The translations under genes and the position numbers were made by a program. A DNA stretch of 64,000 nucleotides, from positions 13,330,001 through 13,394,000 of the forward strand of contig OX597822.1 in NCBI GenBank assembly GCA_951406725.2. Reading direction: 5' to 3'. Positions 24,704 through 44,479 of this stretch are shown here, piece after piece. The notes beneath the pieces are model-generated. The model saw only the letters and a list, made by a program, of their open reading frames with translations, did not search any database and was not told the DNA's origin. The stretch is from Octopus vulgaris (lineage: Eukaryota). Position 1 is the stretch's first letter. Each line of letters starts with the position of its first letter.

Positions 24704-24761
<58 letters not shown>

Positions 24762-25010
24762 TTAGTAATGCAATACTAGAGTATTGCTTTCCAGTAAAGA
24801 GTAGCCCTTCAGGGAAAAATATACAAAGAAGTAAATATATGGCACAACGAAGTACCGATATTTACTGGAAATAGCGAACGTAATAATACGACGCTAATGT
24901 ATAGCTTCACCGCGTATGTACTGGCAAAAATGCGTGTGTGCAACAAACTAGAAAAAATTGTCTTACCTCCAGGGAGAACAACTGAAAGATGAAATACCTG
25001 GAAAAGGATA

Positions 25011-25091
25011 ATGTGGGACCTGCGCAGGTTTCAGATTTTTCAAGATATGTCTGCTACCCATAAACTTGATATATCTTCATCAGCCAAACAT
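25011..25091 (-). ncRNA. Type I hammerhead ribozyme motif
   Basis: Inverted copy of 25389-25469 with intact core. Confidence 0.85.
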
Positions 25092-25388
25092 ATACCACGA
25101 CAACATTTCAGATGTTACCACATTAATGCCATTACACTCGAAGCTATACATTATCGTCGTATTATTACGTTCGCTATTTCCAGTAAATATCGGTACTTCG
25201 TTGTGCCATATATTTACTTCTTTGTATATTTTTCCCTCAAGGGCTATTCTTTACTGGAAAGCAATACTCTAGTATTGCATTACTAATTTATTGAAACTTC
25301 TTCACCGTTCTCGTGCTGTTAGCGTTTCGGCGTTTCAGTCGAGTGTAATGGCATTAATGTGGGCACATCTGAAAGGTTGTCGTGGTAT

Positions 25389-25469
25389 ATGTTTGGCTGA
25401 TGAAGATAGATCAAGTTTATGGGTGGCAGACATATCTTGAAAAATCTGAAACCTGCGCAGGTCCCACAT
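25389..25469 (+). ncRNA. Type I hammerhead ribozyme motif
   Basis: UGG-CUGAUGA(25397)-AGAU..UCAAG...CUUGA..AUCU-GAAA(25448)-CCUGCGCAGG-UC-CCA. Confidence 0.88.
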
Positions 25470-25651
25470 TATCCTTTTCCAGGTATTTCATCTTTCAGTT
25501 GTTCTCCCTGGAGGTAAGACAATTTTTTCTAGTTTGTTGCACACACGCATTTTTGCTAGTACATACGCGGTGAAGCTATACATTAGCGTCGTATTATTAC
25601 GTTCGCTATTTCCAGTAAATATCGGTACTTCGTTGTGCCATATATTTACTT

Positions 25652-25738
<87 letters not shown>

Positions 25739-32490: not shown

Positions 32491-32627
32491 TTATGTTTCT
32501 GACGAAGATCTCCGCTCGAAACGTTAATTCCTCCTTCTTTCTTTCCTTTCCTGAGCGTCCAATAACACTATACTTGTTCCACGTCCTCACGTCGTTGTAT
32601 TTTCTCCTTGTATTTTCGTGTTTGGAT

Positions 32628-36600: not shown

Positions 36601-37308
36601 AAATACATATACCCAAAAGCAACCACGCACACATATATGTATATATATACACATACATACTGTTAACTAAAATAGTATTAAGAAACATTAAAATTAAGAT
36701 AATATTAATTGTTAATTCAACGAAAGGGGTTGGAAGGGTAATTCGTAATATACAAAAAAAAGGGGGCCTAAAAGGGTAGAAAAACTTAAGGGTTAATAAA
36801 AGGCAAAGGTTGGAAAATATTCAGATAAAATTTATAAGAAGGGTATGAACTCAATACGCAGATTTACCATAACAAGTGTAAAGATGTACATTATTTGCAT
36901 AAGATACATAATTAAAAATTACACCGCATATTCCGTAAACAATCAGAATACTACCGTCCAGATATCAACACTTTCAAATTTGATCCCATTCAAACCTCAT
37001 TGATGTGCATTGTTTTGTTCTGTACTATTATGTTTGACCTTGATGTTCATATGTAGTTGGTTAATAAATTATATGATTGGGTATTATCTGGTAGTTGATT
37101 ATTGATTAAGGTGTATTTCTCCATTTTCTTATTTTGTATTATAAATTTGCGGTAAAACATTTTACCTTCACCCATATAATACAATAAATGAATCGCAATT
37201 CTTAACATTTATGTATTAACTTCGTTGGGTGCTTTACTGGCAGTATATTGGATATATGTTATCCCATGGTGGGTTGCACTCACAACCCCTATCTCAATTT
37301 ATATGTAT

Positions 37309-37369
<61 letters not shown>

Positions 37370-37995
37370 AGCATATGTGTATGTATGTTTATACGTATGA
37401 TCATATACATATATTTATTTATTATTAAAAATAAATTAGCTAAGGAAATAACTCTGGATGGCCAGAAGAACAAATTTAGTAATAAAAGAAATATGACAAA
37501 AACGGTTTACCAAAATCCATAGAAAATATACTCTCGTGGTGGCGTTGAAGAAATGTCAACCAACTCCAAATGGGAAAAGGTGATTATCTCAAGGATGGAG
37601 CAATGAGCCTTCTGAAATAAAACACCGTTTAGGGGGAGTTAAACTTTTTGTCCTGCCATCAATAATACATGTTTCTACTTATTAGGCGTCATCGTCACAC
37701 CATTTTCCTACCAATACTCCAGTTACACAGAATAGTAATTACAACAAAAGGGACATAAGACAAATGATTCAAAATGGCATAGCATGATATGTTACTGTAT
37801 ACTAAATACAACACAATATTTATTCTTAATTTATTGATTTTTATCTCCGCTATTTTACAGACATTAAACAAACACCTAACGGCAATTGCAATTAAGTTAA
37901 CAGTGAGATCGGAGTCTGATCAGTGGTGGTGAAACTGCTTCAATAAACCAGCACCAAGGAAACTGCGAATTGGTGTGAACCATAGTGTAATGTGT

Positions 37996-38040
<45 letters not shown>

Positions 38041-38751
38041 AAACTGTTTATAATTATATAACGATAAGGCATTCCCGCAGCCTAGACAAACACGAGCAAA
38101 ATAAAACGGGTATGAAATTTCAGTGTTTTTTTAAAGGAAAGCATTTCCTCACACAGCTAATCTTACGATTCATGAATATATGCACACATGAGCGCATGTA
38201 CAAACACACGCATACACATACACATATACACAAGCATACACACAGGTTTTAACATGTGATGTGCGCAAAAAAGCCGTTTATTTGATCAGCTTAAGTCGTT
38301 TCCAAAGCATTTCATATTTTTTTATCTTTTACATATTTCTTTTATTAAACTGCAGCATCGGCGGCTTCTGTCGAAAAAATCGATCCACTTATTTTTTAAA
38401 AGCCTGGTACTTATTTTATTGCTCTCGTTTTGCCAAACTGCTAAAGCAAACAGAACCGGTTTTCAAGCCGTTATGTGGAACACACACAATCAGAGCGGCA
38501 CGTACACACGCATACACATATATACATATACATACAAACACACACATACACGTGTATATATACATATAGTTGAAATTTACAGAAAAACAAAAGACGAAGA
38601 CGGGTGTATAAACAACAAGCAAGTGTATTAGTTTGACGCTCGGGAAACTCAGAAAGTCTTTTATGCTTCGAACCTAAGCTCTTCAACAGAAAGGAACACG
38701 AGGAAATATACAGGGAGAGAATAAAAACTTGTGGATTTAGCGATCAATCAT

Positions 38752-39098
<347 letters not shown>

Positions 39099-39667
39099 AA
39101 CGGGCTTCTTTCAGCTACCAAATACACTCACATAGTTTTGGTCAGCTTGGGGTTAAAGTTGAAGACATAGATCCAAGGTACCCCGCAGTAGAACTGAAAC
39201 CAAGACCACACGTTTGTGAAGCAAGCCTTTTGCCACGCAACCATAGTAATTTATACCACTCAATCAACTTTGCGACTGAATCGCACTAAAGTCTGGTCAA
39301 GTGTTGATGTAATCACTAAATAAATGTACATGATTGTACATCGAAAACTACTACTGTTTAGTTAGAAGTTAACCCAGTCAAACAACAAACTGTACAACTG
39401 ATTTGGACATTTCAAAACGCCTAATTAAAATTACTTTCCCCTCTTACGGACTTTAGTCTCTTCACAAAGGGCAGAATAGCAGAGGTGAGTGTTGTGGTTT
39501 TAATATGTCTAAAGCTGTAATAAACACTTCTTGTTTAATAGTCTTTGTTGAAACTGGTTAGCCATGAATAAATAAATTTATGTTAAACCAATGTTATTTA
39601 AAATTTATTGTTCTGTAAGTGTTTCTGTACGCGTATAGGTATATGTATATGCAGCAATTTATATGTA

Positions 39668-39786
<119 letters not shown>

Positions 39787-39869
39787 GCACATATACATAC
39801 ACCCACATATATATGCATATACTTATATACACACATATATGTATTTGCGTGCTGTGTGTGATCGTACAC

Positions 39870-39916
<47 letters not shown>

Positions 39917-39917
39917 C

Positions 39918-39976
<59 letters not shown>

Positions 39977-40357
39977 CATACGTACATATATATATATATA
40001 TATAAATGATTTTAATGCCATTAACTTTATATGTGAGAGTATATATTTGCGCCAGTAATAAATATGAGTACGTAATTATATTTGTGTGAGTTCGCGTGTA
40101 TGAATGAATCATAGAATAAGTGGGAAACGTAACGATATCTGTTTCAATACACAAGTGTGTAATACATTTAGAGAAATCTCTTATTGACGACAGTTTGAAA
40201 TCAACTAATTTATTGCTATGTAAATAGATTGGACAGTGATTGGGAAATTTGGAGATTGAGCTTCAGAGTACAGGCTTAAAAGATAATGCCGTGGATTTTA
40301 AGGACGATTTCGTTTATGCGGTTTTATATTCTACACACAAACTCACATGTATTCGTG

Positions 40358-42999: not shown

Positions 43000-43245
43000 T
43001 ATATATGTATGTGTGCGTGCATATGTTTGTGTGTCTGTGTTTGTCCCCCCAACATCGCTTGACAACCGATGCTGGTGTGTTTACGTCCCCGTAACTTAGC
43101 GGTTTGGCAAAAGAGACCGATAGAATAAGTACTAGGCTTACAAAGAATAAGTCCTGGGGTCGATTTTCTCGACTAAAGGCGTTGCTCCAGCATGGTCGCA
43201 CTCAAATGAGCGAAACAAGTAAAAGAGTAAAAGAGTATGAGTAAA
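43000..43245 (+). mobile_element. SINE family A 3' half
   Basis: Matches 7385-7612. Confidence 0.85.
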
Positions 43246-43653
43246 GTCTAGGATATGTTTATTATGCCACTTACAGAAGGTATTCTTAATAGGTAAGTTA
43301 CTTGGTTCATCTCTTTTTCTGAAAACCCTAGTTTATCTAGATTGTCATTTATTCACTCACAAAACCAAAGTACACCAAGGCTCATTAGTGTAAATGTGAA
43401 TATGTAATCTGGATATAAAGAAGCTGGACGTTTCGAAGTAGTTATCTTCTTTCTCTTTGATTTTCACATCAGCAGAGCAGGTTACCTATTTTTTCTTCTC
43501 TGTCGCAAACGGAGATTATGCAGTCTGGCATCTTTATATCTGATAGATGTCTTCATGGGAATGTTCCGCCAGTATTCCCTGTGTTGATTATTATTCACAT
43601 TATTTACATTATTTACATTTGACGAATATTTGTCCTCATCTTATTTGTTGTTA

Positions 43654-43697
43654 ACAAAACGTTTCAGATGATATACCCTCCAGCCTTCATCAGGTGT
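43654..43697 (-). ncRNA. Type I hammerhead motif, slightly decayed
   Basis: ACAC-CUGAUGA-AGGCUG(10 nt)CAUCU-GAAAC GUU-UUGU. Confidence 0.7.
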
Positions 43698-43752
43698 CTT
43701 GGGGAAATTTCGAACCTGGGTTCTCATTCCTAAAGTATTTTTCGATATTATA

Positions 43753-43805
<53 letters not shown>

Positions 43806-43817
43806 TTTCAATGCCCA

Positions 43818-43893
43818 TGGGCATATGGTGTAGTGGTTAAGAACGCGGGCTACTAAACCCAAGATACCGAGTTCGATTCCAGGCAGTGACCTG
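43818..43893 (+). mobile_element. tRNA-derived head, SINE-like and not a functional tRNA
   Basis: tggtgtagtggttaag (A box) and gagttcgattcc (B box), followed by (AAT)n; no proper acceptor stem. Confidence 0.7.
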
Positions 43894-43895
43894 AA

Positions 43896-43948
<53 letters not shown>

Positions 43949-43989
43949 GCATCGAAAAATACCTTAGGAATGCAAACCCAGGTATTTTT

Positions 43990-44202: not shown

Positions 44203-44415
44203 CTTTTCCACTCAAGGCACAACACCCGAAATTTTGGGGGAGGGAGCCAGTCGATTAGATCGACCCCAGTGCACAACTGGCACTTAATTTATCGACCCCG
44301 AAAGGATGAAAGGCAAATTCGACCTCGACTGAATTTGAACTCAGAACGTAAAGACAGACGAAATACCGCCAAGTAATTCGCCTGGCGTGCTAACGATTCT
44401 GCCAGCTCACCGCCT
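44203..44415 (-). mobile_element. SINE family B variant
   Basis: Reverse complement head and central domain, with an alternative 3' tail. Confidence 0.8.
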
Positions 44416-44479
44416 TTCTTTTCGATGACTTATATTGCAACTACGAACAATTGCAGATACCATGAACAGAAACTAGTTT

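Follow-up and report, generated by a model that had tools for sequence, protein, structure and literature searches.

Layout of the locus

Do a tRNA-like head, an (AAT)n tract and a hammerhead ribozyme lying together in octopus DNA make up a SINE with its own promoter and ribozyme, or do they belong to something longer? The former had been proposed in a sequence-only reading of the window (the whole 64,000-nt stretch analysed), which reconstructed a single unit by overlapping two arms joined head to head. The A/B-box head, (AAT)n, body, hammerhead and 9-mer repeats were all located where they had been placed (Table 1), and the head-to-head arrangement is borne out by the 102-nt inverted repeat, 90% complementary, that the two arms form. 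In the window hammerhead, the core is followed by one extra nucleotide, stem II, a palindromic stem III stub and stem I, with cleavage predicted after position 43658; the tRNA-Arg-like head lacks an acceptor stem. Neither a tail of ∼33 nt, which is optional in Penelope-like elements (PLEs), nor a TSD was found at this locus. When the window was searched with Rfam, no hammerhead or tRNA appeared at gathering score or among 20 matches at E ≤ 10, and ARAGORN reported no tRNA in it; both calls thus rest on comparison.

Table 1. Features of the head-to-head locus (positions in the window).
Feature	Position	Strand	Remarks
9-mer repeats	43587..43621	−	End of minus arm; repeats proper 43619-43590
Minimal type I hammerhead	43653..43698	−	Core 43693-43687 and 43665-43658
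Body, 5′ part	43699..43746	−	Holds first in-frame ATG of the PLE ORF (43727-43725)
(AAT)n of inverted arm	43746..43803	−	Arm 5′-truncated
Head-to-head junction	43802..43811	.	Final head bases (minus strand) and a few junction bases
Short hairpin/palindrome	43812..43823	+	At pLTR 5′ boundary, start of most copies
tRNA-Arg-like head	43819..43895	+	A box 43826-43836, B box 43869-43880
(AAT)n of plus arm	43896..43948	+	Tract read from 43894
Body, opening 33 nt only	43951..43983	+	Breaks off ahead of hammerhead

The window is rich in microsatellites, and pieces of other common dispersed repeats lie at 44230-44420 and 43030-43200 of the window, recurring in the flanks of fetched loci. A different repeat occupies 24760-25655 as a head-to-head pair between (TA)n tracts; it has T runs, no obvious tRNA head and a hammerhead-like core in each arm (25038-25083 on the minus and 25397-25442 on the plus strand), and is probably another PLE family. 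At 32499-32525, a short stretch lodged between microsatellites contains a minimal hammerhead-like motif, immediately preceded by (TA)n.

The unit in the genome

In the assembly examined (2.8 Gb, 227 contigs), many copies carry head, (AAT)n, body, minimal hammerhead and 9-mer repeats in one uninterrupted series, which makes the unit reconstructed from the overlapping arms a genuine one. The reconstruction would have been refuted had head and body never co-occurred elsewhere; they follow each other on the same strand, within ∼250 nt, at 23 of 29 non-self loci selected by the head. Copy number is high, with 3259 body and 1692 head candidates at first look. The 1.2 Mb of unselected DNA (120 stretches of 10 kb) contained 17 loci, a small count that includes one weak 22-nt match, and the genome total is estimated at ∼37,000–40,000 insertions, or about one per 70 kb. 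Counts per insertion refer to a set of 84: of 90 loci selected by the body, six were dropped, namely three that repeated other loci of the set, two that duplicated L003, and the window locus itself. Among these, short copies greatly outnumber ORF-bearing ones (46 versus 3), and none of the 17 unselected loci carried an RT/endonuclease part.

At L178 (5610-5750), head and (AAT)n occur without the body and run into a different repeat, which also follows (AAT)n in L093; and L247 contains seven tRNA genes, mostly Cys, clustered in 3 kb.

The unit as part of a Penelope-like element

At nine loci, the sequence upstream of the head was common to all and encoded the end of a protein. When loci were selected by the RT, the head lay 3′ of the ORF in 20 of 30, ∼30 nt past the stop codon of the RT-endonuclease; when they were selected by the N-terminus, 16 of 30 showed body, hammerhead and tail continuing into the beginning of the ORF. 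The unit thus flanks the ORF on both sides and overlaps its start. The body holds the first in-frame ATG, which precedes the hammerhead, and both the 9-mer repeats, which in full elements fall in the N-terminal frame of the ORF, and the tail are coding. The unit is therefore almost certainly the pseudo-LTR (pLTR) of a Penelope/Poseidon-type PLE. Contigs from runs labelled organisms A and C bridge the head and the endonuclease end, which indicates that the arrangement extends beyond this assembly.

The proposed SINE-like unit is real, abundant and retroposed, carries A/B boxes with a minimal hammerhead and may be transcribed by Pol III, but it is no self-contained SINE like Sm-alpha: the head sits inside a longer autonomous PLE, and the hammerhead is the normal ribozyme of a PLE pLTR. 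Similarly, the (aatgtaaat)n repeats exist, but what was taken for a SINE tail is the start of the PLE reading frame.

The insertions bear corresponding marks. Arms are joined head to head in 58 of the 84 and tail to tail in none; the tail is on exactly one arm in 39 of the 43 in which both 3′ ends are present; and TSDs of 9–13 bp were found in 12 of 33 testable pairs, compared with 0 of 33 in the control. Head-to-head arms, a one-sided tail and short TSDs are features described for PLEs in the parts of two papers that were accessible (bioRxiv 2021.04.23.441226; PMC3846280). According to the accessible text of PMC11167929, the PLE tail marks two internal RT start sites close to the ORF start; the cut made by the hammerhead falls within the ORF and depends on assistance by protein, and insertion in vitro proceeds without the ribozyme.

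The element protein matches Pfam RVT_1 (E 1.5e-7) and has 282 protein homologues with at best 53% identity; those listed with at least 669 aa carry PF00078/PF28514/PF26215. In the closest homologue (P0001, 53%), a similar peptide is read through the same hammerhead region. From the RT thumb to the endonuclease, identity with an 836-aa protein of Anolis carolinensis, probably the Poseidon family of PMC11167929, is 33%. The endonuclease region is part of this alignment, yet its YIG position reads YKG, and the Pfam GIY-YIG profile did not match the protein pieces of the element. Searched against the genome, that profile recovered other PLE families, none of which matches this element by DNA. No relative of the element was found in viral contigs. 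Copies differ by ∼5.6% from the column majorities, and none of 132 matches retains an intact ORF (longest open frame 569 aa); from both, the family looks old and mostly inactive.

A candidate 38-nt GT-AG intron spans the tail. L278 and L283 represent a young PLE family with many open frames of 781 aa and a variant hammerhead-like core downstream, which we take, by its motifs, to be Neptune-like.

The hammerhead

In its layout, the ribozyme agrees with the minimal PLE hammerhead described in PMC4209133: a 6-bp stem II set off from the core by one extra nucleotide, then a palindromic stem III stub and a 5-bp stem I. In 19 distinct copies, 91% of cells are paired, compared with at most 53% when the alignment is slid; no compensatory change or covariation was seen in the stems of these copies. 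This layout recurs, with other stem sequences, at nine related loci of other animals. Of 122 arms, 71 have an exact core and 30 have both stems intact. Mismatches in stems I and II mark the window copy as damaged, and it does not fold better than shuffled sequence (z 0.74). The predicted cut lies 69 nt after the ATG, inside the ORF; no pile-up of RNA ends was seen there in three unstranded RNA-seq runs of one study.

The tRNA-like head and the ends of copies

The best match to the head was a tRNA-Arg of the same genome (48–49 of 73 positions identical), the comparison comprising 30 tRNA loci of only six amino-acid types. The A and B boxes are conserved no better than the remaining head (0.91–0.93 versus 0.89–0.91), and as a single strand the head does not fold better than shuffles. 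No such module was detected with a tRNA profile between ORF end and hammerhead in any of the 14 related loci in which both could be located. Five of these 14 have a TATA-like motif 37–50 nt upstream of the hammerhead; the octopus element, too, has a TATA-like hexamer, which lies across its stop codon (about −33).

The 5′ ends of copies accumulate at the start of this head. The furthest 5′ end lies at the head start in 46 of the 84 insertions, inside the head in 10, in (AAT)n or body in 25 and in the ORF in 3, and 46 of the 49 head-spanning insertions end within 19 nt of the head start. Resolved to the base, 58 of 81 arms end at −10..+8 and none between −10 and −150; two arms that share a junction are not independent here, and values cannot exceed +8, since positions were anchored on the A box. 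In the unselected 1.2 Mb, six of nine head-bearing loci start at −6..+4, one starts inside the head and two at −41 and −52. Under a model of constant truncation, six of eight starts at −6..+4 have a P of about 1e-6, so uniform truncation cannot yield the pile-up. Among near-full copies, 1 of 30 reaches −63.

On balance, the locus is best read as a head-to-head insertion of two truncated Penelope/Poseidon-type pLTR copies whose tRNA-Arg-like module likely acts as a Pol III promoter. PLE promoters sit in the pLTR, according to the accessible text of two papers (PMC6765202, PMC2377424), and the A/B boxes would fill that role here. For the module in particular, the evidence leans towards a Pol III promoter that sets the 5′ end of the RNA. 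Pol III would start ∼6–9 nt upstream of the tRNA-like +1 (about −9..−6) and read through the terminator-free ORF. The RT would prime internally at the ORF start, giving two classes of 3′ end, copy ∼270 nt and run off the 5′ end of the RNA, whereupon the cDNA end might fold back or re-anneal via microhomology to give the inverted arm. The rarer ORF-bearing copies would stem from long RNAs on which the RT primed at the downstream repeat. The hammerhead, which lies inside the ORF, would function when dimeric or when assisted by protein, as other PLE hammerheads do. RNase P cleavage at the tRNA-like +1 was rejected as a source of the 5′ ends because the head has no acceptor stem.

The main alternative, which we regard as somewhat unlikely, is an ordinary PLE transcribed by Pol II: the tRNA module would have been captured into the 3′ UTR as a passenger, and copies would end at the head through snap-back of the nascent cDNA on a hairpin located there, as at the palindromic pLTR ends of other PLEs. 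The strongest local RNA hairpin (−12.5 to −15 kcal/mol) does span the boundary, from −17 to +18, and many junctions are palindromes centred on it. Precedents exist as well: rotifer pLTRs open with palindromes of 18–38 bp ascribed to self-priming, the accessible part of the paper mentioning no tRNA (PMC3846280), and the Drosophila Penelope promoter is described in the text available as LINE-like and internal, with Inr/DPE (PMC2377424). The three unstranded RNA-seq runs show no pile-up of RNA ends at the head, which would fit Pol II but tells little about starts; they cover the element, and depth over the head is ∼1.3–2.5 times that just upstream, a small step. Such libraries may miss short Pol III RNAs. 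Also counting against a Pol III promoter are the ordinary conservation of the A/B boxes, the TATA-like hexamer at the stop codon and the few copies that extend to −41, −52 and −63. In the contig layout, summed depth over the head is not clearly greater than over the endonuclease end, contig depth being unable to rank parts.

Snap-back does not account, however, for solo copies with plain host flank, which begin at −6..+4 too (L147, L178, L309, L361), and in ORF-linked copies the RT got past the intact hairpin. Structure-induced stalls would moreover be expected at the 3′ foot of the fold and not at its 5′ exit, which would favour a Pol III start. The position of the A/B boxes, where some relatives have TATA/CCAAT, is left unexplained by Pol II transcription, as is the TTTT deficit described below.

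That the head-to-tail unit is a true SINE, amplifying from short Pol III master copies with the PLE protein acting in trans, is quite improbable: the excess of short copies, the lack of RT/endonuclease parts in the unselected loci, and the retention of both boxes without an internal terminator in each short copy would fit, but the unit also serves as the ORF's own upstream repeat, and the head is internal to the PLE instead of forming the true 5′ end of an independent element. Furthermore, no fixed diagnostic site separates 25 ORF-linked from 90 short copies (nominal p < 0.05 was reached at just three sites, of which one is a gap and two are C/T changes within the head), and divergence is 5.6% versus 5.7%. 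Common alleles and equal divergence leave a separate SINE lineage unsupported.

Shortage of TTTT on the sense strand

Under the favoured Pol III reading, a more far-reaching version can be formulated, to which we give distinctly less than an even chance: an autonomous PLE whose captured tRNA-Arg promoter replaced a Pol II promoter would be transcribed by Pol III end to end, with TTTT purged from its 2.6-kb ORF. Across 2527 and 554 overlapping columns (∼2.9 kb of sense strand), no run of four or more T is present in at least 10% of copies. The same columns contain 28 A4 and 7 C4 runs, but G4 is absent too. Per single copy, T4 occurs at 0.32/kb (24 runs in 74,567 nt), compared with 2.55/kb (153 runs in 59,889 nt) in relatives, namely the 35 of 80 fetched ones that were used (at least 1.3 kb, 19–24.5% T). 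Two of these 35 likewise lack T4, in 1.4–1.9 kb. Allowing for the spread among families, P0 is about 0.02, and a codon simulation on 616 aa gave P between 0.05 and 0.12; taken together, P for the deficit is put at about 0.02–0.06. After correction for composition, the deficit is modest. Phe makes up 2.2% of the element protein compared with a median of 3.1% in 120 homologues, which may be either cause or result of the TTTT deficit. With GIY-YIG PLE families of the same genome as controls the contrast is overstated, as they are richer in Phe. The relative L376, whose ORF has no TTTT, was considered as a second case and rejected for its T-rich UTR and lack of a tRNA module.

Pol III transcripts, being uncapped, serve poorly as mRNA, and a Pol III promoter for a whole protein-coding PLE, if that is what it is, would be unusual for such a gene. 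If true, the short run-off copies would be a SINE in the making, and a route would lead from Penelope elements to tRNA-plus-hammerhead repeats such as Sm-alpha.

Relation to known elements

The octopus SINEs OK, OR1 and OR2, reportedly described by Ohshima and Okada in 1994, are likewise tRNA-derived octopus repeats; they were set beside the unit by description, not by sequence. OR1 and OR2 derive from tRNA-Arg. One of these two is cited as a CORE-SINE, the sources, in their accessible parts, disagreeing as to which. Octopus SINE collections or repeat databases may thus already list the short unit under the SINEs, its link to a PLE unnoticed. A published octopus repeat annotation (PMC13282606) lists 6.83% PLEs and many unclassified SINEs, and the accessible portion of its supplement does not mention hammerheads. 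In the literature searched (listings and abstracts, with passages of the papers cited here), neither a PLE repeat with a tRNA or Pol III promoter nor an octopus SINE with a hammerhead is described.

The Penelope/Poseidon PLEs of Anolis carolinensis (Poseidon; PMC11167929) and rotifers (Pen2/Pen3; PMC3846280), as described in what could be accessed of these papers, share with the octopus element an RT followed by a C-terminal endonuclease region, putative in octopus, a pLTR that overlaps the ORF start with a minimal hammerhead whose cut site, predicted in octopus, lies within the ORF, an optional tail of 30–40 nt at one end, an inverted 5′-truncated arm and short TSDs. Unlike them, the octopus element has a pLTR opening with a tRNA-derived A/B-box module and (AAT)n, and no conserved TTTT on the sense strand. 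The promoters described for known PLEs in the sources at hand are of Pol II type (TATA/Inr, Inr/DPE), in contrast to its A/B boxes. The Sm-alpha/Sj-alpha repeats of schistosomes likewise combine a tRNA-related Pol III promoter with a following hammerhead at high copy number; they are described as non-coding and often tandem in the accessible text (PMC6765202, PMC2770079), whereas the octopus unit is part of an autonomous PLE, dispersed, head to head and equipped with a minimal PLE-type hammerhead. Animal non-LTR retrozymes are also short hammerhead units related to PLE pLTRs, but occur in tandem arrays, with no tRNA promoter mentioned in the part available (bioRxiv 10.64898/2026.07.22.740005), whereas most copies of the octopus unit are inverted pairs that match the parent PLE. 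A Penelope/Poseidon-type pLTR is thus known; the tRNA-derived module as likely promoter and the terminator-free sense strand are likely new.

In the usual view, a SINE combines a tRNA head with a LINE tail, whereas autonomous retroelements are transcribed by Pol II (or by Pol I read-through). A PLE repeat with a tRNA promoter at its front would blur this divide and give tRNA-plus-hammerhead repeats a tangible source. Through it, one could also test where PLE transcription starts, why pLTRs arise as solo and inverted copies and how translation copes with an RNA that is cut within its own ORF. In practical terms, ∼40,000 insertions of a PLE family could be mislabelled as SINEs.

Some further tRNA-like sequences were observed. 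At L058 (1480-1520), 17 nt between the stop-codon region and the head resemble a decayed inverted copy of the head start, as if the tRNA module had been captured by a fold-back insertion. In other animals, tRNA-like sequences lie near Poseidon-type ORFs at L368 (2513-2581) and L386 (2613-2660), in both cases ∼400 nt upstream of the matched ORF part, and at L439 (1710-1880), where they form an inverted pair ∼400–500 nt downstream of the ORF.
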